DNA of 64,000 nt from an uncultured Methanosarcinales archaeon (GTDB lineage Archaea; Nanobdellota; Nanobdellia; Woesearchaeales; GW2011-AR15): the NCBI GenBank assembly GCA_964512765.1, contig CAZEKF010000004.1, forward strand, positions 15,739-79,738. The letters run 5' to 3'. Within the stretch, counting starts at the first letter, position 1; each line of letters begins with the position of its first letter. The translations under genes and the position numbers were made by a program. Below are positions 10,201-41,284 of the stretch, one piece after another. The notes beneath the pieces were generated by a model. It was given only the letters and a program-made list of their open reading frames with translations, searched no databases and was not told where the DNA came from.

Positions 10201-13200
10201 ATTGGTATGTGCAATGGCTTTGGTCAGAACTGGGCAGGCCCTGCAGAAGGTATTATCGACGAAGTAAAAATCTATAGCAGAGCTTTATCGCCTGGTGAAA
10301 TCACAAACAGTTACCAAGGAATTCCTGTTTCTGATGCTGGTTTAGAATTATACTATCCGTTTGAAGAACTTGAATACACGTTAGATTATTCCGGTAATGG
10401 AAATACAGGAGAAGTTAACGGTGCAACACTTATAGATGGTAAATATGGCAAAGGATACAATTTTAATGGAATTAATAATTATATTGAAGTATTCAATTCA
10501 TCCACTTTTGATTTAGGATCATTACAAGGACTTAGAACAGATGCAACATTTAGCATGTGGGTTAAAACAGATTGTAATGAATGCGGAATAATGTCCATCT
10601 TGGCTGGACACGAAGGAAATAGAGGTCATGATAGACACATTTTTACTAACAATGGAAAAATTGACGGTAGAATCTGGCACGGAGACAATGGTGGATTTGA
10701 GATTGGTGACAAGGATATTGGAGACGATTCCTGGCATTTAATTACTATGACAATTGAAGAAGAAATTGGAAGTAAATTTTTTATAGATGGTGTCGAAGAT
10801 ACTACAGTCACCAAAGACCAGTCAGATTTTAACTGGAGTGACAGATTATGGTTAGGTTTTTCAAACGACGCAGATAATAATTATTTCAATGGTATTATGG
10901 ACGAGTTCAGGGTTTATAACAGAGTATTAAATCAGCAAGAAATTTCTAACCTCTACCAAGGAAATTCTGTTTTAGATAATGGATTAGTTCTGTATTATCC
11001 GTTTGACGAATCTTTAGATAACAACACACAACCGAACAGCATTTGTGAATATGGTGAAGGTTGTGCATGCAGTGACTGTGAAGACCAACAAGACGGCTGT
11101 ATATTTGGTTTAGCATGTGATGATGGTTTATGCGCGTGCGTACCTACACAGGAATATGAAACAATAATTGACGACGGTATTGATAATGACTGTGACGGGT
11201 TGATAGACGAACCGTATTTTGACGATCCTGGAGTTTATATCTGGGAAGCTAACTGTGATTATTACATGTGCGTATACTCGCATGATTCAAACGAATATAC
11301 AACAACTGGTGTGTTGTCAGGGTCAGGTTTCTCGCAAATCAGAGAACATGACTGGGAAAATGACGATAGTTACACATACGATAATGTTAACAATCTTATA
11401 TCTTTCACATCTGAACTAAAAAATGATCTGGACTGTTTAATCTTTAAAACAGACAGCATGGTTACATATGATTTGAACTTAAGCAAAGATAATGTTTATT
11501 TAACACAAAGAAAGATTAATCCATTGGAAAATCCGTTTGATTTCTCTAGTCCTGAATGTAACAGTTACTGTGAATATCCAAACTTTTGCGGAACTACATT
11601 ATTATTAATAGGAAGGGTTGACTGTGACTATGAACAGTGTATATTTGACTGTGGCGGGTACTGGGTTGATGTTGAGTCAGGTTATGACTTTTTACCTGAA
11701 GGTGTTGCAAGAAACCCTGGTGATTATTGTTCAGTTTGTTCAAATGACATGGTTTGTTCAAATTATACAAACCTATACTCGTGCCATTTTGATCCTTGTG
11801 AAGCTTCACTAACATATTTCGGATGTAACTGGGACGAAGCATCAGATACCTGTGAAGACGCGTTTAGTCCATGTATGCCAGGAACTACATTATGCAAAGA
11901 CGGAAGTTGCAGTCAGGACTGTGAAGATACAGACACTGCAAACGCAGGTTGTATAGGATATCCCGATAATGTTTGCGAACTAGGCGAAGGATGTGCGTGC
12001 AGTGATTGTGACGACGACCAGGCAAGTTGTACAAACGGCGCTATTTGCGGTGATAATGAACGGTGCGGATGTCCAGAAGATACAACCTTGTGTAATGATA
12101 AAACATGCGATGAAACTTGTGAAGATAATGGCGGTAAAACAGGATGTATTGGTAGTCCAAATAATAAATGCGAGTTTGGCGAAGGTTGTGCGTGTGAAGA
12201 TTGTTTACTTTTACAAGACAGTTGTGTTGAAGGCATAGTTTGTGAAATCGGAGAAGAAGTTTGTAGTAAATTTGGCATTGAAGAAAAATGTCCAGCAGGA
12301 ACAACATTGTGCAACGACGGTACCTGTGACAATGATTGTAATAATAATGGTGGTAAACGGGAATGTTACGGTGACCCGGACGACATTTGTCAGTACGGTG
12401 AAGGATGTGCATGTGAAGATTGTGATGAAAAACGCGATAATTGTGTAGATAGGGTATATTGTAATTATGATACTAAACTGTGTGAAGGAGAAGATTACCC
12501 AGACGATGACGATGATGATGACGACGATGATGAAGAACAGTGTATAGATAAAGACAGTGATAATTATTATAAAATTGATAAAGATTGTATAGGTAGCAAT
12601 GATTGTAATGATAGAGATAGGTCTGTGAACCCTCGTGCCAACGAAATCTGTAATAATAATAAAGATGATAACTGTGATGGTTACATTGATGAAGATTGTG
12701 ATTCGTCTCTTAAGGTTAAACTCGGGTCAATACCTGAAGTACGTGTTTTAGATAAATTTGAACTTGAAATTACTGTTAATAATAATTTAAACAAAGAAAT
12801 TGAACAGGTTGAACTAAACGTGGACGTGCCAACAGGAATTAAACCAAATAAACAAACTCAAAAAATATATAGTATAGATTCAAAAGATTTTGAAAAAGTT
12901 ACATATGAACTGTTTGTAAAAGACTTCAAACAAGATAAGGCAGATATTACTTTAAACATTGAAATTCCTGAAGAAGTTGATATTTCAGAAGAGTTATCAG
13001 TGAACATTGACATTCCTAAATTCCTTGTAGCAGCTGACCCTGAAGATGTTGATGAAAAATGTGTTGATTTGTACTACGTTATTAATGATAACTCATTACA
13101 AAATGAAGTTGATCTTGAACTTAATGTAATAGATCCTAACGCATTGCTCAGTAAAACAGTTGTTCTTGATTATCTAAGATCCATAAAAACTAAAGGAATA

Positions 13201-14930: not shown

Positions 14931-15804
14931 TTTTCATTAACTTTTCTAACGGTAGCTCAGAAAGTATCATTGCAATTACAATAATTAACCCACCCATTGC
15001 TCTGTTCCTAATAAAAACTTCGTTGCCTAATGTCCAGGCAAACACAGCAGCAAACACAGGTTCCATTGAAAAGATTAAAGCTACTTTGACAGGAGTTGTA
15101 TACTTTTGTGCTATTAACTGAATAACAAAAGCAGACACAGTTGGAAATAAGGTTAAGAATAATACAACTCTTAAAGTATTAATTGTCCCAAAACTAGTTG
15201 GTAGTTGAAAAACAATTCCTGTAATAATGCTTAACACACCAATAAAAAAAAACTGTTGGAAGCTTAAGACATATGGATCTGATTTCTTTTTAATATATTT
15301 ATCAGCAAATAAAATGTGGAATGCATAAGTTACTGCTGCAATTAAAGTTAACATATCACCAATATTAATTTCTTTAAGACCACCTGTTAATAACCATAAA
15401 CCTAATAATGCAAGAAAAACAGAAAACAGTTTTGCTATGGATAACTTTGTTCGAAAAAACATCATTGAGAAGATAGGCACAAATAAGATAAACAATCCAG
15501 TTATAAATCCAGAATTTGAGGCTGTTGTATACTTCAATCCAATTGTTTGTGAAATATAAAGTAACCACAGTATAAACCCAAGAACAAAACCGTGTTTCCA
15601 ATTATTGAATAACCTTTTTTTCTGAAAATAAACAATAAAACCAAGTATGATAGCAGCTAACAAAAATCTATATCCTACTAACATTACAGGATCAATGTGC
15701 TTTAAACTCTCCTTAACAATGAAGAACGTAGAACCCCAGATAGCTGCTGCGTATAACAAACCAAGATCAGCTAACAATGTTTTTTTCTTTGTAACCAATT
15801 TCAT
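14911..15804 (-). CDS. DMT/EamA family transporter
   Basis: AAIWGSTF, LQTIG-like TTASNSGFITG, EPVFA; 10 TM duplicated architecture. Confidence 0.9.
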   Translation of the reverse strand: MKLVTKKKTLLADLGLLYAAAIWGSTFFIVKESLKHIDPVMLVGYRFLLAAIILGFIVYFQKKRLFNNWKHGFVLGFILWLLYISQTIGLKYTTASNSGFITGLFILFVPIFSMMFFRTKLSIAKLFSVFLALLGLWLLTGGLKEINIGDMLTLIAAVTYAFHILFADKYIKKKSDPYVLSFQQFFFIGVLSIITGIVFQLPTSFGTINTLRVVLFLTLFPTVSAFVIQLIAQKYTTPVKVALIFSMEPVFAAVFAWTLGNEVFIRNRAMGGLIIVIAMILSELPLEKLMKNAKQLS

Positions 15805-15845
15805 TTAAGAAAAGAAGTAAGATGAAGTTTATATTTGCTTTTATT

Positions 15846-16175
15846 TCAAAGCATGTAATCCATTGCACGTGGAAGTCTAAGAAGTTCGGATATATTAGAT
15901 ACTGCTCTATCAGATTGTGAAAGAGGATCAGGAGTCTTATGCCCTATAGGAGATACTAAATCTTTAATACCTATATCTCTCTTTAGATTTAATGATTTTA
16001 ACATTCTGGCATAAGGAGTATTATCAGCACCAAGTACTTCATGGAACAGAGAATATTCTCTAGCGGTGATTCTAGGATCCATTCCTGAATAAGGCCTCAA
16101 ATTAAGTTCATTATTATGTGTATATAAAGCATTCTGTGCAGCTGCATCTTGTTCTCCAATTGTTGTATATCCCAT
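15846..16175 (-). CDS. Hypothetical protein
   Basis: 109-aa ORF filling the intergenic space, AAGGA RBS; no recognisable motif. Confidence 0.55.
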   Translation of the reverse strand: MGYTTIGEQDAAAQNALYTHNNELNLRPYSGMDPRITAREYSLFHEVLGADNTPYARMLKSLNLKRDIGIKDLVSPIGHKTPDPLSQSDRAVSNISELLRLPRAMDYML

Positions 16176-16241
16176 TTTTTCCTTAATATTCTATTTTTCT
16201 ACTATACTAATACAATTTCTTTTACAAATGTTTCGATTTTG

Positions 16242-16261
16242 TAATCACTGTCAAGTGATTA
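16242..16261. promoter_or_regulatory. Palindrome between divergent promoters, possible operator
   Basis: TAATCACT-gtca-AGTGATTA perfect 8-bp inverted repeat. Confidence 0.4.
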
Positions 16262-16309
16262 TATCATCCAAGCAAAGTTTTAAATATAAAATTAATCTAC
16301 TGTTTTGTT

Positions 16310-16354
16310 ATGTATTCGTTATGGAAAACTTTAGCAGTAGTAGTGGTGCAATAG
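16310..16354 (+). CDS. Putative valS leader peptide MYSLWKTLAVVVVQ
   Basis: ATG about 25 nt after TTTAAATA box; GTA GTA GTG GTG run; hairpin and U-tract follow; valS directly downstream. Confidence 0.65.
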   Translation: MYSLWKTLAVVVVQ

Positions 16355-16420
16355 TTTCCATTGGCTTTTTTCTTCTAATATTTTATTAATTATTAGGAAA
16401 ATTATATAGAAGAGAAAGCA
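16321..16420 (+). promoter_or_regulatory. Putative attenuator in valS leader
   Basis: ATGGAAAACT pairs with AGTTTCCAT, then CTTTTTTCTTC; this U-tract can also pair with TAGAAGAGAAAGC near 16407-16419. Confidence 0.5.
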
Positions 16421-16457
16421 TTATAAATATGAAAACAAAGGTGCATGAATATGGAAA

Positions 16458-16505
16458 AAAAAATTAATAAATTTTTTAACCACCAAAAATCACAAGGTGA
16501 TTTTT
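16458..16505 (+). repeat. Double-hairpin element, copy 1 (covers valS RBS)
   Basis: AAAAAATT-aata-AATTTTTT, 7-nt spacer, AAAAATCAC-aag-GTGATTTTT. Confidence 0.55.
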
Positions 16506-16506
16506 G

Positions 16507-18933
16507 ATGGAATTACCAAAGAAATATGATCCGAAGATATCTGAAAAAAAATGGCAAAAGTATTGGGAAGATAAAGAAATTTACAAGTTTGACCCAAAAG
16601 ATACAGAACGTGAGTTATATGTAATAGACACTCCACCGCCTACTGTATCAGGTGCTATGCATATAGGTCACGCTTCAATGTATTCACAGATGGACATTAT
16701 TGCACGTTATCAAAGATTAAAAGGTAAGAATTTGTTTTATCCGTTCGGCACAGATGATAACGGGTTAGCAACTGAAAGATTAATAGAGAGAACTAAAAAA
16801 GTAAGATCTGTTAACATGAAGAGATCTGAGTTTATTAAACTGTGCTTGAAAACATTGGAAGAAATCAGGCCAGGCTTTGTTCAGGACTGGAAAAATGTTG
16901 GTATTAGTTGCGATTTTACATTGTTTTATTCAACTATTAATGACCATTGTAGAAAAATATCACAGAAATCATTCCTTAAACTGTATAAAAAAGGCAGAGA
17001 ATATAGAAAAGAGTCACCTTCTATATGGTGCCCTGAGTGCCAGACTGCAATTGCGCAAGTCGAGTTAGAAGATAAAGAACTAAAAAGTACATTTAATGAT
17101 ATCATCTTTAAAGTAGATGGTAATGATTTGGTAATTGCAACTACACGGCCAGAAATGTTAAGCAGTTGCGTAGCAGTTTTTGTACATCCAGATGATAAAC
17201 GTTACAAAAAATACATTGGTAAGAAAGCTAAAGTTCCGTTGTTTAACTACGAAGTACCGATTCTAATTGATAAACGAGCAGACCCTGAAAAAGGTACAGG
17301 AGTTGTAATGTGTTGTACGTTTGGTGACCAGACAGACATTGAATGGTATAAAGCGCATAATCTAGATCTAAGAATATCAATTACCAAAGATGGTAAAATG
17401 ACAAAATTAGCTGAAAAATACCATGGATTAAACATTGAAAATGCTCGAAAAGAAATTATTAATGATTTAAAGAAAAACAAATTATTGATTAAACAAGAGC
17501 CGATTAAACATACAGTTAATGTTCATGAACGATGTGGGACAGCTATTGAAATTCTTAACACAAAACAGTGGTTTATTAAGTATCTTGATCTGAAAGATCA
17601 GTTTTTGCAGAACGGTGCAGCCATGAACTGGTATCCTAAACATATGAAGTCTAGATTAGATAACTGGATCAATGGTTTACAATGGGACTGGTGCATTTCA
17701 AGGCAAAGACATTTCGGTGTACCGTTTCCTGTATGGTACTGTAAAAAATGCGATACTGAAATTCTTGCAAATGAAAAAGATCTTCCAGTAGACCCGCTAG
17801 AAGATAAACCACCAGTTAAGAAATGTCCTAAATGTAGTTGTAAAGATTTTGTACCTGAGAAAGATGTTTTTGACACATGGGCAACAAGTTCATTAACACC
17901 TGAACTAGCAGGTGAACTAATCAAAGGTAGTCCTAATTATAAAAACATTTATCCGATGGATTTAAGACCGCAAGCGCATGACATTATAACGTTTTGGTTG
18001 TTTAACACAATGGTTAAATCACAGTTGCATCACAAAAGAAACCCGTGGAAAAACATAACCGTTTCTGGCTGGGCTTTGGATCCACACGGTAAAAAAATGT
18101 CAAAGTCAAAAGGTAATGTTATACATCCACAAGAAATGATTGAAAAGTACAGCGCTGATGCGTTAAGGTTCTGGGCAGCTGGAAGCAAACTTGGAGATGA
18201 TCTGCCTTTCCAAGAAAAAGACCTTGTAACAGGTAAAAAAACCATTACAAAGTTATGGAACGCTAGCAAGTTTGTTTTAATGCATCTTGAAGATTATGAA
18301 TATGAAAAACATGATCTTGAAAATATTGACAAATGGATCTTGTCAAAGTTACAGAACTTAGTTAAAACATGCACAGAACATTTTGATAAATATGAATATT
18401 CAAAAGTTAAGTTGGATGTTGACACATTTTTTTGGCACGTGTTCTGTGACAACTATCTAGAACTAGTTAAAGATAGATTGTACAATCCAGAGAAACATCA
18501 CAAAGGTGCAAGAAATTCTGCACAGTTTACACTTTATGAAATATTGTTAACTATACTTAAGTTATTAGCACCGATATTACCACATATAACTGAAGAAATC
18601 TACCAGTTGTACTTTGCAAAAAAAGAAAACAAGAAAAGTATCCATATTTCTTTGTGGCCAGAGTTTAATATAACTTATGTTGATAAAGAAATTGAACAAA
18701 CGGGAGATTATGTGGTTAGTATAGTATCTGCGGTTAGAAAAGCTAAATCCGAGAAAGCTCTTTCATTAAACACTGAACTAAAAACATTAGTGATTGAGTG
18801 TTCATCTTCAATAAGAAAAAATCTCGAGTTGGTGTTACCTGATATCAGTGCAGTTACAAAAGCTAACAATATAGAATTTGGTAAGGGTAATATTGAACTA
18901 AGTAAAGAAATAAAGATTAAAGTTATTTTTTAA
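16507..18933 (+). CDS. valS: Valine--tRNA ligase (archaeal type)
   Basis: IDTPPPTVSGAMHIGH, ATTRPE, WCISRQR, KMSKS; AGGTGA RBS. Confidence 0.97.
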   Translation: MELPKKYDPKISEKKWQKYWEDKEIYKFDPKDTERELYVIDTPPPTVSGAMHIGHASMYSQMDIIARYQRLKGKNLFYPFGTDDNGLATERLIERTKKVRSVNMKRSEFIKLCLKTLEEIRPGFVQDWKNVGISCDFTLFYSTINDHCRKISQKSFLKLYKKGREYRKESPSIWCPECQTAIAQVELEDKELKSTFNDIIFKVDGNDLVIATTRPEMLSSCVAVFVHPDDKRYKKYIGKKAKVPLFNYEVPILIDKRADPEKGTGVVMCCTFGDQTDIEWYKAHNLDLRISITKDGKMTKLAEKYHGLNIENARKEIINDLKKNKLLIKQEPIKHTVNVHERCGTAIEILNTKQWFIKYLDLKDQFLQNGAAMNWYPKHMKSRLDNWINGLQWDWCISRQRHFGVPFPVWYCKKCDTEILANEKDLPVDPLEDKPPVKKCPKCSCKDFVPEKDVFDTWATSSLTPELAGELIKGSPNYKNIYPMDLRPQAHDIITFWLFNTMVKSQLHHKRNPWKNITVSGWALDPHGKKMSKSKGNVIHPQEMIEKYSADALRFWAAGSKLGDDLPFQEKDLVTGKKTITKLWNASKFVLMHLEDYEYEKHDLENIDKWILSKLQNLVKTCTEHFDKYEYSKVKLDVDTFFWHVFCDNYLELVKDRLYNPEKHHKGARNSAQFTLYEILLTILKLLAPILPHITEEIYQLYFAKKENKKSIHISLWPEFNITYVDKEIEQTGDYVVSIVSAVRKAKSEKALSLNTELKTLVIECSSSIRKNLELVLPDISAVTKANNIEFGKGNIELSKEIKIKVIF

Positions 18934-31973: not shown

Positions 31974-32741
31974 ATGGATATTACTTTGTTTGAAGATCTT
32001 GGATTGACAGAAAATGAGTCTACAATATATTTAACATTATTAAAAGAAGGAGAGTTAACAGCTAACGAAGCAAGTGAAAAAACTGGATTGCATCGTAGTT
32101 ATGTATACGATACTCTTTCTAAAATGGCGAACAAAGGTTTTGTTAGTTACTTGATAAAATTAGGAAAAAAGCATTTCAAAGGAGTGCATCCAAACAAATT
32201 TCTGAAAATGCTTAAGGAAAAAGAAGAAAAAATTCAAGAATTAATTCCTGAACTATTAAAAGTGTATAAAGAGGAAAAAGCGGACTATAATATTGAGATT
32301 CTAGAAGGTAAAGAAGGCCTAAAAACTTTTTATGACACTTTGTTTGATTATCTTTTTTCTGAAGATCCTAAAGAGGTGTTACAATTAGGAAGAAAAGAGC
32401 CCATAGAAGAGCATGTTGTTAAATATTACAGAGTTAAAATGACAAAAGAAGCTGAAAAATTAGGTATTATGAAAAAGTTAAAACAAGGAAAAATGAAAGC
32501 AAGATCATTACTTGACTACTCTGTAAAAAAAGAAAAACGTCTTATTAAAGAACTAATGCCTTATAGATATTTACCAAAAGAATTTGATACAAAAGGAAAG
32601 GATTTGTTGATTGTTGGAGATAAAACAACCATTGAATCAACAGAGGGAAAACCTTTTGTTATAGTAATATCCAATAAAGGAATAACAGATTTTTTTAGAG
32701 AAATGTTTAATGCTTTGTGGAATATCTCTGAAGAAGAGTAA
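31974..32741 (+). CDS. TrmB family transcriptional regulator
   Basis: LGLTENESTIYLTLL...ASEKTGLHRSYVYDTL HTH, EGKEGLK, C-terminal FNALW. Confidence 0.9.
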   Translation: MDITLFEDLGLTENESTIYLTLLKEGELTANEASEKTGLHRSYVYDTLSKMANKGFVSYLIKLGKKHFKGVHPNKFLKMLKEKEEKIQELIPELLKVYKEEKADYNIEILEGKEGLKTFYDTLFDYLFSEDPKEVLQLGRKEPIEEHVVKYYRVKMTKEAEKLGIMKKLKQGKMKARSLLDYSVKKEKRLIKELMPYRYLPKEFDTKGKDLLIVGDKTTIESTEGKPFVIVISNKGITDFFREMFNALWNISEEE

Positions 32742-35129: not shown

Positions 35130-35161
35130 TTTTATATATTATTTATGATTTACTTTTTTGT

Positions 35162-35221
35162 ATGATTACTAAATGTAGTAACGATAATAATTTCTGTACA
35201 GATGATTGCGGTAGCAGTTAA
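35162..35221 (+). CDS. Putative leader peptide MITKCSNDNNFCTDDCGSS upstream of ppcA-aspS
   Basis: ATG about 25 nt after TTTATATA (35131); stop lies in GCAGT-taa-ACTGT hairpin followed by TTTCTTTTT. Confidence 0.5.
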   Translation: MITKCSNDNNFCTDDCGSS

Positions 35222-35267: not shown

Positions 35268-36728
35268 ATGAAAATCCCAAGAGCAATGTCAACACAACAT
35301 CCGGATAATGTAAAACAACCGTTTTTTGTAGAAAATTCTGTAATCGGCGGTGATGATGAGATTAAAGAAGCGTTTTACGCGTTCTCACATCTTAAAATAA
35401 AAGAACAGTTATGGGACTGTGAAGGTAAAGAAGTTGATAACTTTGTTGTTGAAAAATTATTAAGTAGGTATGAGCATTATTTCAGAGAAAATAAAATTGG
35501 TAAAGATATTTTTATTACTTTGAGAAGTCCAAACCCAAGGATTGAGAAAGGTAAAGGAAAGTTATTACTTGAAACATTAGAAAGCATACCAAGGAATTAT
35601 GACATTGCTAAACAGTTTTACGGTGAAGACATTGCACCTATATTTGAAATAACAATACCCATGGTGTCAAATGCTAACGAGATTCTTAGAGTTAAAGATT
35701 ATTATACTAAATACATTATTGAAAAACAAAACAAAATTGCAAATGATATCAAAGTTAAAGATTGGGTTGGCGAGTTTAAACCTGAACAGATTAAAGTTAT
35801 TCCTTTGATAGAAGACAAGGATAGTATGTTAAATGCTGATAAAATTGTAGAAGAATATCTGTCTAAAGCAAATGAAAAAGAGTATCAAAGAGTGTGGCTG
35901 GCCAGGAGTGATCCTGCTTTGAACTATGGTAATTTAGCAGCTGTTTTAGTTAATAGAATAGCGTTCCAAAGATTGCATAAATTACAGCAAAAGTTATCAA
36001 TTGAATTATTACCTATAATAGGCTGTGGTTCTGTGCCGTTCAGGGGTAACTTTCGTCCTGATAACATGCAGAATATACTAAAAGCATACCCAAGTGTTCA
36101 GACGTTTACATTACAATCTGCGTTTAAATACGATTTTCCTGAAGAAGATGTTAGAAAAGCAGTTGAGTTATTGGATAACACACCAAGAAAAGATCCAAGA
36201 AAAATTAATGAAACAAAAGCACTTGAAATTATAGAAAAAACATCTAAAGAATATCAGAAACAAATTATACAAATAGCTCCATTGATAAACCAGATAGCTA
36301 ATTATGTTCCTCAAAGACGAAAAAGAAAAATGCATATTGGTTTGTTTGGCTATTCAAGAGATGGTTCCGGTGTTAAACTGCCACGTGCAATTAAATTTTG
36401 TGCGTCATTATATTCACTAGGTATACCACCAGAATTGTTTGGACTAAACGCACTAGATGAAAAAGAGTGGGAATTTATTTTTGAAAATACAGGTGTTGAA
36501 AAAGATATTAAAGATGCATTGTTATTTTTGAACAAAGATAATCTATCAATACTACCTAAAGACATTCAGAAAGAATTAATGTCTGTCATTAACAATTTTA
36601 ATGTTGAACCAGATCTTAAACACAAAAAGATTACATCAATCATATTCAATGACTATAAAAAAAATAATCTAATTGCGTTGTCAGAAAATATTGAACGAGC
36701 AGCTAGTATTAGGAATTTTTTAGGATAA
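35268..36728 (+). CDS. ppcA: Archaeal-type phosphoenolpyruvate carboxylase
   Basis: IPRAMSTQHPDN, WDCEGKEVD, LARSDPALNYG, PFRG, GLFGYSR, LPRAI. Confidence 0.95.
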   Translation: MKIPRAMSTQHPDNVKQPFFVENSVIGGDDEIKEAFYAFSHLKIKEQLWDCEGKEVDNFVVEKLLSRYEHYFRENKIGKDIFITLRSPNPRIEKGKGKLLLETLESIPRNYDIAKQFYGEDIAPIFEITIPMVSNANEILRVKDYYTKYIIEKQNKIANDIKVKDWVGEFKPEQIKVIPLIEDKDSMLNADKIVEEYLSKANEKEYQRVWLARSDPALNYGNLAAVLVNRIAFQRLHKLQQKLSIELLPIIGCGSVPFRGNFRPDNMQNILKAYPSVQTFTLQSAFKYDFPEEDVRKAVELLDNTPRKDPRKINETKALEIIEKTSKEYQKQIIQIAPLINQIANYVPQRRKRKMHIGLFGYSRDGSGVKLPRAIKFCASLYSLGIPPELFGLNALDEKEWEFIFENTGVEKDIKDALLFLNKDNLSILPKDIQKELMSVINNFNVEPDLKHKKITSIIFNDYKKNNLIALSENIERAASIRNFLG

Positions 36729-40896: not shown

Positions 40897-41181
40897 ATGA
40901 AAGTTGACAAAGAATTAATAGAGCATGTGGCAAACGTTGCTAGATTAAAATTGACTAATGAAGAAATTAAAGAATTCTTACCTCAATTAAAAGAGATACT
41001 TAAAGCGTTTGAAGAATTACAGCAGGTTAACACAAATAAAACAAAACCAAGTTATCATTCTATTGAGTTAAAGAACACAATGCGTGAAGATATTCCCAAA
41101 TCTTGTTTAACAAATGAACAAGCATTAAAAAACACTCAACATAAAGCTAAAGGTTATTTTAAAGGTCCAAAGGTGGTATAA
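40897..41181 (+). CDS. gatC: Asp-tRNA(Asn)/Glu-tRNA(Gln) amidotransferase subunit C
   Basis: HVANVARLKL, MRED, YFKGPKV. Confidence 0.92.
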   Translation: MKVDKELIEHVANVARLKLTNEEIKEFLPQLKEILKAFEELQQVNTNKTKPSYHSIELKNTMREDIPKSCLTNEQALKNTQHKAKGYFKGPKVV

Positions 41182-41185
41182 AAAA

Positions 41186-41284
41186 ATGGCAAAAAAACCG
41201 TTTATATCTAAACAAAAAATGTGGTTGTTCACAGGATTTGTAGTGCTAATGTATGCATTAATGAAACTGTTCGGGTTGGTATGA
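41186..41284 (+). CDS. Unannotated 32-aa single-TM peptide
   Basis: MAKKPFISKQKMWLFTGFVVLMYALMKLFGLV fills the gatC-cyclophilin gap exactly; stop abuts the next ATG. Confidence 0.55.
   Translation: MAKKPFISKQKMWLFTGFVVLMYALMKLFGLV

Follow-up and report, generated by a model that had tools for sequence, protein, structure and literature searches.

The valyl-tRNA synthetase gene (valS) in the 64-kb stretch of archaeal DNA analysed here (the window; contig C4:15739-79738) is preceded by a short upstream open reading frame (uORF) with a run of four Val codons at its end. We consider, at a probability of roughly 0.85 and on the basis of sequence comparison, that this element works as a ribosome-mediated attenuator of valS, with a leaderless leader peptide as its basis. 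The computed support comprises (i) the uORF, (ii) the geometry of its promoter, (iii) conservation at the amino-acid level, (iv) covarying stems, (v) a motif shared between leaders and (vi) the occurrence of the same design at a minimum of 12 other loci. The leaders have a common anatomy: cognate codons that close a leaderless uORF, a stem that a ribosome stalled at these codons would keep open, and a shared motif with a pyrimidine tract. We infer that the uORF is translated, that the ribosome stalls, in which direction valS responds and that termination is the step under control; stalling could turn valS on through intrinsic or FttA-assisted premature termination, or through something else. 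A first-pass annotation had already proposed a Val-codon leader peptide with an attenuator-like RNA at this place. The TATA-like box, the ATG at 16310, the Val uORF, its four Val codons, the stem, the U tract, the pairing partner of that tract and valS are all present as it had listed them, and Pfam and NCBIfam agree with its identification of valS (Table 1).

The source assembly (G000) amounts to 1.53 Mb in 44 contigs, with 97% completeness and 31.9% G+C. The closest named valS loci are from metagenome-assembled genomes of Woesearchaeota and the TATA geometry is archaeal, which bears out the archaeal, DPANN host assumed in the first-pass annotation. Upstream of 1201 long open reading frames (ORFs) of G000, the sequence TTTAWATA peaks at −31 (40 genes), with 21 genes each at −30 and −32; offsets −33 and −34 account for 10 and 8 genes and every other offset for at most 6. 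Such a sharp peak ∼31 nt before the ATG means that many G000 genes are leaderless. The val uORF lies at this leaderless mode, its ATG being 31 nt from TTTAAATA, and it therefore has a credible translation start signal. A uORF at leaderless spacing followed by a valS gene with a Shine-Dalgarno sequence is the arrangement expected if the transcript starts at the uORF and valS is the second cistron. The region upstream of valS (16176-16506) is a divergent intergenic one, since the neighbouring gene (15846-16175) is on the opposite strand. No Rfam family matched 15500-17200 at E-values up to 10; a scan of 15800-16900 for bacterial promoters and terminators, which is uninformative for an archaeon, gave no terminator-like site and no promoter matches above those of shuffled sequences.

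Conservation was analysed in a family of 20 species genomes, 19 of which have a readable valS 5′ flank (in G019, valS is cut by a contig end). Of the 19 loci, 11 have a short uORF with a Val run at its end ahead of valS, and TTTAWATA was found at −30 or −31 in 12 of 12 family val leaders. The search for a Val-run uORF with synonymous variation, suggested in the first-pass annotation, was thus positive: over the 11 leaders all four Val codons are used (GTA 16, GTG 13, GTT 11 and GTC 4 times), and the last of them stands 0–2 codons ahead of the stop codon. Conservation of the peptide is limited to the Val run and to codons that are paired in the RNA. The Ser-rich peptide encoded in another frame (ATG at 16321), which had been mentioned as a competing possibility, is not conserved, its ATG being replaced by CTG in G012 and G007.

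The RNA corresponding to 16310-16425 is predicted to form two adjacent hairpins (−24.6 kcal/mol, z = −2.61; 1 out of 200 shuffled sequences folds as well). Pairing was then assessed with a matched-versus-mismatched duplex test, used in place of RNAalifold, in which the two arms of one leader are compared, by permutation, with arms taken from different genomes. For hairpin A of the val leaders, matched arms average −7.69 kcal/mol and mismatched arms −5.54 kcal/mol, and no more than 13 of 5000 permutations do as well as the matched arms. This hairpin is maintained by differing sequences, among them CTGAAAAC/GTTTTCAG, TGAAATCT/AGATTTCA (compensatory, in G003) and CTCTA/TAGAG. Support for hairpin B is weaker (−12.63 versus −11.23 kcal/mol; 161 of 5000 permutations): most of its sequence does not vary, and a clear compensatory change is seen once, GCCTC/GAGGC in G006 for GCTTT/AAAGC. 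In six relatives (G012, G007, G005, G004, G016 and G009) a TTTTT(A) sequence comes after hairpin B, which gives the ensemble the look of an intrinsic terminator. Hairpin B is missing from G008 and G014, where only the motif and a T5–T6 run are present; a run of this type comes directly after the motif in 9 of the 12 val leaders and is offset in G008. After hairpin B the window has ∼55 additional nt that the aligned relatives lack; this block holds a second uORF and a hairpin around the Shine-Dalgarno sequence.

The same design recurs in the rest of the genome. A genome-wide scan of G000 for an ATG located 30–32 nt after TTTAWATA gave 167 matches, 37 of which open ORFs of at most 35 amino acids. 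The four longest single-residue runs among these 37 short ORFs are T6, V4, I4 and L3, and the ORFs carrying T6, V4 and I4 each directly precede their own cognate synthetase gene. At no fewer than 12 further loci, a cognate-codon leader stands before a synthetase or biosynthesis gene (Table 1), making at least 13 loci with valS. Some of them call for caution: the metA match (208.8 bits) is below its cut-off of 460.5 and begins at profile position 36, the TATA box of the Cys leader is at −33, and the thrC operon is directly upstream of the thrS leader. Apart from tRNA-Trp, Rfam gave no match in the 12 other leader loci at E-values up to 0.1. Background noise was estimated from 20 more TATA-positioned short ORFs with at least three identical residues among their last eight (mostly L, K and I); these precede unrelated or unnamed genes, including those for an aminotransferase, a carbamoyltransferase, NrdR, a glycosyltransferase, FBPase, a radical SAM protein, a nitroreductase and a phage tube protein.

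Leaders were next sought in relatives, a leader being defined by at least three cognate residues among its last 10 and by a TATA-like box (at least 6 of 8 positions) at −29 to −33. In the family, thrS has such a leader at 16 of 19 loci, leuS at 15 of 17 (16 of 18 if both G009 copies are counted), ileS at 14 of 18 (12 after discounting two long AT-rich ORFs) and metS at 2 of 16. The F/Y/W-rich leader of the DAHP synthase gene is present at 8 of 8 loci, and a trpE leader with at least two Trp residues at 2 of the 4 loci whose upstream sequence extends over at least 450 nt (a fifth locus, in G017, has 135 nt). The leader runs make use of all six codons for Leu and all four for Thr. Beyond the family, a Thr leader was detected at 4 of 60 thrS loci (4/40, one of them with just 104 nt, and 0/20). 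The device is therefore concentrated in the family and patchy elsewhere in the order; the same figure sets a bound on the false-positive rate of the definition.

These other leaders have covarying structures as well. In thr leaders a small hairpin has the stop codon in its loop and a stem made of the last two codons and 6 nt of post-stop sequence; it covaries strongly (ACCUGC/GCAGGU, ACCUCU/AGAGGU, ACGAGC/GCUCGU and others; 0 of 5000 permutations). In leu leaders the 5′ part of the uORF, often AUGAA itself, pairs with post-stop sequence (25 of 5000), and ile leaders have a covarying post-stop hairpin (0 of 5000) together with an invariant GRUAGAGA complementary to Ser-Ile codons. Two further pairings were not retained: an outer helix in thr leaders, between the 5′ 30 nt and post-stop positions +4 to +22, is unsupported (950 of 5000), and the long-range pairing of Ile codons with GRUAGAGA, in spite of a predicted −11.5 kcal/mol, involves two invariant strands and displays no covariation (529 of 5000). 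The 65 leaders end with 36 TAG, 20 TAA and 9 TGA stop codons, TAG being the commonest in a genome with 32% G+C, and the leader stop codon often lies within the stem or loop of the adjacent hairpin.

A motif, N-UUCA-K-UG (score of at least 7/8, within 28 nt of the stop codon), was found in 38 of the 65 leaders, at positions ranging from 2 nt before to 10 nt after the stop codon. It spans nine gene types: val, leu, thr, met, ser, argG, metA, trp and one ile leader. The 12 nt that follow it are G-poor and 71% pyrimidine, versus 50% in intergenic controls, and a T run of at least five within 25 nt is present in 34% of leaders, versus 14% of controls and 25% of convergent gene ends. The motif was rejected as a general terminator of the genome: of 405 matches to TTCA[GT]TG[GT], 35 are intergenic, about the number expected from 10% of non-coding sequence. 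Neither is it simply the complement of a uORF 5′ AUGAA; this pairing covaries in arg, cys, ala and several leu leaders and fails for val and thr, in which the 5′ ends differ and the motif stays. The nuclease FttA/aCPSF1 is encoded in G000 (871.6 bits for a cut-off of 580.2). In the relevant passages of three published papers, aCPSF1 is described as preferring single-stranded CA (PMC3553952) and as binding U tracts via its KH domains (PMC8716108), and a steric contest between FttA and the coupled ribosome is proposed (PMC11616081).

Table 1. Features of the valS leader region in the window, cognate leaders at other loci of the same genome (G000) and val leader peptides of relatives
Feature	Position	Strand	Sequence	Basis or remark
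TATA box of leader promoter	16279..16286	+	TTTAAATA	31 nt before uORF ATG
Leaderless uORF, leader peptide (val leader of G000)	16310..16354	+	MYSLWKTLAVVVVQ	ATG 16310, TAG 16352-16354, 14 codons
Four Val codons, proposed stalling site	16337..16348	+	GTA GTA GTG GTG	Sequence
Hairpin A, Val codons in loop	16321..16361	+	ATGGAAAACT/AGTTTCCAT	Fold and matched-arm test; 5′ arm 16321-16330 (codons 4-7), 3′ arm 16353-16361 (over stop codon), one-base bulge
Post-stop motif	16356..16364	+	TTCCATTGG	Family consensus N-TTCA-K-TG
Pyrimidine tract	16365..16376	+	C-T6-CTTCT	Candidate termination tract; doubles as 5′ arm of hairpin B
Hairpin B	16364..16419	+	GCTTTTTTCTTCT/AGAAGAGAAAGC	Fold and matched-arm test; arms 16364-16376 and 16408-16419
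Second uORF, 20 aa	16445..16507	+	MNMEKKINKFFNHQKSQGDF	This genome only; stop overlaps valS ATG as TGATG
Hairpin around valS Shine-Dalgarno	16485..16505	+	AAAAATCAC/GTGATTTTT	Minimum-free-energy fold
valS Shine-Dalgarno	16496-16500	+	GGTGA	Sequence
valS, valine--tRNA ligase, 808 aa	16507..18933	+		Pfam; NCBIfam NF009687, 1105.6 bits vs cut-off 738
Leader before thrS, G000			MELNYVDRLSEYILLILNTTTTTTC	T6
Leader before ileS, G000			MTSTVIQIISIIII	Ile-rich
Leader before leuS, G000			MKLELLLMLQ	Leu-rich
Leader before metS, G000			MNMTNHFNMSMMMR	Met-rich
Leader before DAHP synthase gene, G000			...DYFAYFYFYFS	F/Y-rich
Leader before serS, G000			MKFKTSISS	Ser
Leader before alaS, G000			MRTPAIAAR	Ala
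Leader before argG, G000			MNTYTLRNSRRL	Arg
Leader before metA, G000			MLNYCLINSKMLMMC	Met
Leader before tRNA-Trp(CCA), trpE, trpG, G000			...NVNWCWWL	Trp
Leader before two unnamed ORFs, then cysS, G000			MNLGCCC	Cys
Leader before small kinase-like ORF, then thrC, G000			MKIVELLKIILSDISTITVTC	Thr-rich
val leader, G012			MYNLLKTLIVVVVN	
val leader, G007			MINVLETVVVVV	
val leader, G005			MYSLYKTLDVVVC	
val leader, G004			MYSIWKTLSVVVAN	
val leader, G006			MNRLLKVYMVLVV	
val leader, G008			MYLVSGIFSVVVA	
val leader, G014			MYQLFKTVSVVVV	
val leader, G016			MNSQVIVVD	
val leader, G003			MNIILKSVFVVVVN	
val leader, G010			MYSLYQTLIVIVVS	

The proposed mechanism would operate as follows. The transcript would begin at the uORF AUG or right beside it, ∼31 nt downstream of the TATA box, and a ribosome would load on the emerging 5′ end and travel to the four Val codons at the end of the 14-codon uORF. 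When charged tRNA-Val is scarce, the ribosome would stall there, its footprint covering the 5′ and/or 3′ arm of hairpin A and reaching UUCAKUG. When tRNA-Val is plentiful, it would proceed to the stop codon, one to two codons further on, and leave; hairpin A would then form, with the motif and the U/C tract exposed. This exposed or folded state would lead to premature loss of the transcript just past the uORF, either through hairpin-aided intrinsic termination at T6 or through FttA/aCPSF1-assisted termination. By blocking that loss, the stalled ribosome would allow valS to be made when valine charging is low. That stalling should correspond to the ON state is argued from the other targets, since trpEG, argG, metA, thrC and the DAHP synthase gene must turn on when the amino acid is lacking.

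Several observations weigh against the attenuator so described. (i) Of the 19 family valS loci, 7 have no uORF (G001, G002, G011, G013, G015, G017 and G018), and beyond the family a Val-run uORF was found at only 1 of 16 valS loci (G039, MICVVVVVA). With a strict VVV filter, none of 53 named valS loci passes; one of these (L085) is the G016 contig, which has VIVV. (ii) In G009 (L114) the Val codons are not in the reading frame of the ATG, and an in-frame stop codon comes before them. The RNA element of this leader (motif, hairpin B and U tract) is nonetheless intact; the broken frame reflects either an assembly indel or a decaying leader. (iii) RNAalifold, run on a MAFFT alignment of 10 val leaders, gave no consensus structure. 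(iv) No antiterminator alternative to hairpin B (a competing 2:3 pairing) was found among the val leaders; hairpins A and B stand side by side, and a stalled ribosome would not obviously prevent formation of hairpin B. (v) Hairpin B of the window is followed by ATTATAAATA and, unlike that of most relatives, has no U tract after it. (vi) In val and leu leaders alike, hairpin A holds the CA of the motif in base pairs, a poor fit with cleavage at single-stranded CA. (vii) The trp leader is followed shortly after (about 7–20 nt) by a tRNA with no T run between the two, some leuS leaders leave just 35 nt before the gene, and the hairpins of ileS and DAHP synthase leaders come without U tracts; a single hairpin-plus-U-tract rule therefore misfits some leaders. 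As to the proposal of the first-pass annotation that the leader senses charged tRNA-Val and thereby controls valS, its core is supported by every comparative test run. The U-tract switch that went with it is weakened by points (iv) and (v).

Attenuation could alternatively act on translation, the uORF or post-stop RNA pairing with the valS ribosome-binding site (RBS) and a stalled ribosome freeing it, with no termination involved. We regard this as improbable, even though the closest known system works in this manner: in the mycobacterial ‘Cys ribulon’, as set out in the part of the preprint available to us, leaderless poly-Cys small ORFs are attenuators that coordinate several loci via the ribosome and RBS sequestration (bioRxiv 10.1101/834739). 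The 35 nt left by some leuS leaders are too short for separate terminators, and in the window the Shine-Dalgarno sequence of valS is held in a hairpin (16485-16505) through which the second uORF reads. This hairpin, however, is absent from relatives, and neither the uORF nor the 30 nt of post-stop sequence covaries with the translation-initiation region; the permutations (out of 3000) that reach the matched value number 2157 and 1358 for val, 2409 and 1958 for thr, 1812 and 1686 for ile, and 2278 and 241 for leu. Masking of the RNA by a stalled ribosome produces no predicted gain in accessibility of the Shine-Dalgarno sequence or ATG (mean change of −0.048 for val). Finally, the trp leader precedes a tRNA gene, which is not controllable at an RBS.

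The Val codons are located in the loop of a hairpin followed by a conserved UGG, and in G009 the RNA has been retained though the reading frame is broken. Both features are compatible with an RNA that senses tRNA like a T-box and without translation, the loop codons pairing with the tRNA-Val anticodon and UGG with the CCA end. This alternative is very unlikely. Rfam, T-box included, gave no match; the runs of three to seven cognate codons are always in frame with an ATG at leaderless TATA distance and end 0–2 codons before the stop codon; and variation at third positions fits coding. Use of all six Leu codons means that no single anticodon could pair with them, and the base after UGG does not track amino-acid specificity in the way that a discriminator would. 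It is scarcely credible that the uORF is a chance ORF, or the gene of a small hydrophobic protein with its own function unrelated to valS: short AT-rich ORFs are common and the 20 TATA-positioned ones whose tails are rich in L, K or I lie ahead of unrelated genes, but 13 loci of a single genome show cognate matching, which is also conserved between genera, and the val peptide is conserved just in its Val run and RNA-paired codons.

The preferred reading, a ribosome-mediated attenuator, can be compared with several known systems. Leader-peptide attenuators are established in bacteria (trpL, pheL/pheM, thrL, ilvL and hisL), with pheM-pheST as the synthetase example; most bacterial synthetase genes are under T-box or protein control. 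As in the bacterial attenuators, a short upstream ORF ends here in a codon run for the amino acid of the downstream gene, stems overlap the ORF, a U-rich tract stands ahead of the gene, and the presumed readout is the position of the ribosome relative to RNA polymerase. The leaders described here differ from them in belonging to an archaeon, with promoters recognised by TATA-binding protein and a Pol II-like polymerase, in the leaderless uORF and in having no 2:3 antiterminator among the structures found. They also share UUCAKUG between leaders of different specificity and have many synthetase targets, and one of them stands before a tRNA gene. T-box riboswitches, which control synthetase genes in Firmicutes without translation, resemble the present system in having aminoacyl-tRNA synthetase genes as targets and tRNA charging as the signal; their design differs and no Rfam match was obtained here. 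In Escherichia coli, the tna operon is controlled through tnaC and Rho, and mgtA is under Rho-dependent leader control. If the motif is an entry or cleavage site for FttA/aCPSF1, a ribosome at the uORF end would similarly mask a factor site by the stop codon. By analogy, the factor would then be a CPSF73-type nuclease, FttA, and stalling would result from tRNA shortage and not, as with tnaC and Rho, from arrest by a nascent peptide and ligand. The mycobacterial poly-Cys small ORFs, as far as they are described in the available part of the preprint, share with our leaders the leaderless first-cistron small ORF, the cognate codon tract as sensor and, on the proposed mechanism, the coordination of several loci via the ribosome, and a CCC leader upstream of cysS is found here too; they are bacterial, concern a single amino acid and act by RBS sequestration, whereas at least 11 amino-acid specificities are represented here and the RBS-sequestration test was negative. 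By analogy, the valS leader would work like the bacterial leader-peptide attenuators, and most like these mycobacterial leaders.

The first-pass annotation had noted little archaeal precedent, and we found none: a full-text literature search that left subscription journals and supplements outside its scope, so that an earlier description is possible, yielded no account of leader peptides with cognate codons from any archaeon. In the accessible text of a paper on the Haloferax small proteome, leader peptides appear only as a bacterial and eukaryotic analogy (PMC10117724), and in that of a Methanosarcina paper the term occurs only in the reference list.

Some of the leader loci have features of their own. 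At the trp locus (C6:59264-61770; L238), the Trp leader is followed after about 7–20 nt by tRNA-Trp(CCA) (L238:185-258), then by a T7 run, trpE and trpG; a tRNA gene thus sits between the Trp leader peptide and the trp operon. On C12 (15379-19600; L120 and L244), two Thr-type leaders are in tandem on one strand, the first before the kinase-like ORF and thrC and the second before thrS. The kinase-like ORF encodes 209 amino acids with a P-loop and has a weak match to a model of non-canonical homoserine kinase (39.7 bits for a cut-off of 197). Between the Met leader and metA (C1, ∼106060-106364; L243) there are a small ORF led by a Shine-Dalgarno sequence and, by eye, an apparent remnant of an O-acetylhomoserine sulfhydrylase gene, with N- and C-terminal pieces and the internal part lost.

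The window contains a second leader of the same design. A box TTTATATA (35131-35138) precedes a uORF (35162-35221; MITKCSNDNNFCTDDCGSS) with many Asn, Asp, Cys and Ser residues, which is followed by the post-stop sequences GTCATTGAG and TTTCTTTTT and then by a Shine-Dalgarno sequence. The downstream gene (35268-36728) encodes an archaeal-type phosphoenolpyruvate carboxylase (TIGR02751, 593.6 bits for a cut-off of 146); the leader may sense the Asp/Asn family. On the minus strand of C5 (scan coordinates 32415-32540), two adjacent similar units, CCAGTAACCAAYCTGGRGAWTGYATTCATTGT, were noticed, the first within a TATA-positioned short ORF, MKASNQPGDCIHCR; a repeated regulatory RNA of another kind is possible. 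Two regions with a TTCAGTG match, C13 ∼10880-11140 and C14 minus strand ∼41130-41270, were rejected as leaders because they are clusters of CCACTGGACA repeats. These repeats are present in four to five copies upstream of ORFs on C13 and C14, the C14 ORF being recombinase-like by eye.

The leaders make up a system of at least 13 loci in one genome that is conserved across genera of a DPANN family. A broader scheme, which we put forward as tentative and rather doubtful, is that of an archaeal ribosome-sensed regulon (a ‘ribulon’), in which leaderless cognate uORFs would end before a hairpin, UUCA|KUG and a U/C tract, and in which FttA/aCPSF1 or the polymerase itself would abort the transcript unless a tRNA-starved ribosome were parked over the signal. 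If this were true, a single device in one Woesearchaeote would have under its control seven or more synthetase genes and one tRNA gene, together with the trp, thr, met, arg and aromatic pathways. It would represent the first case of ribosome-mediated attenuation in Archaea and would allow transcription–translation coupling and FttA polarity to be read directly in vivo. The system argues that archaea make regulatory use of functional coupling between ribosome and RNA polymerase, and it offers a natural, mutable test bed for how ribosomes block archaeal termination, at U tracts or by FttA. It also supplies a simple rule for annotation (a short ORF that ends in a cognate codon run and whose ATG has a TATA box ∼31 nt upstream) and would show how an uncultured lineage senses its amino-acid supply.

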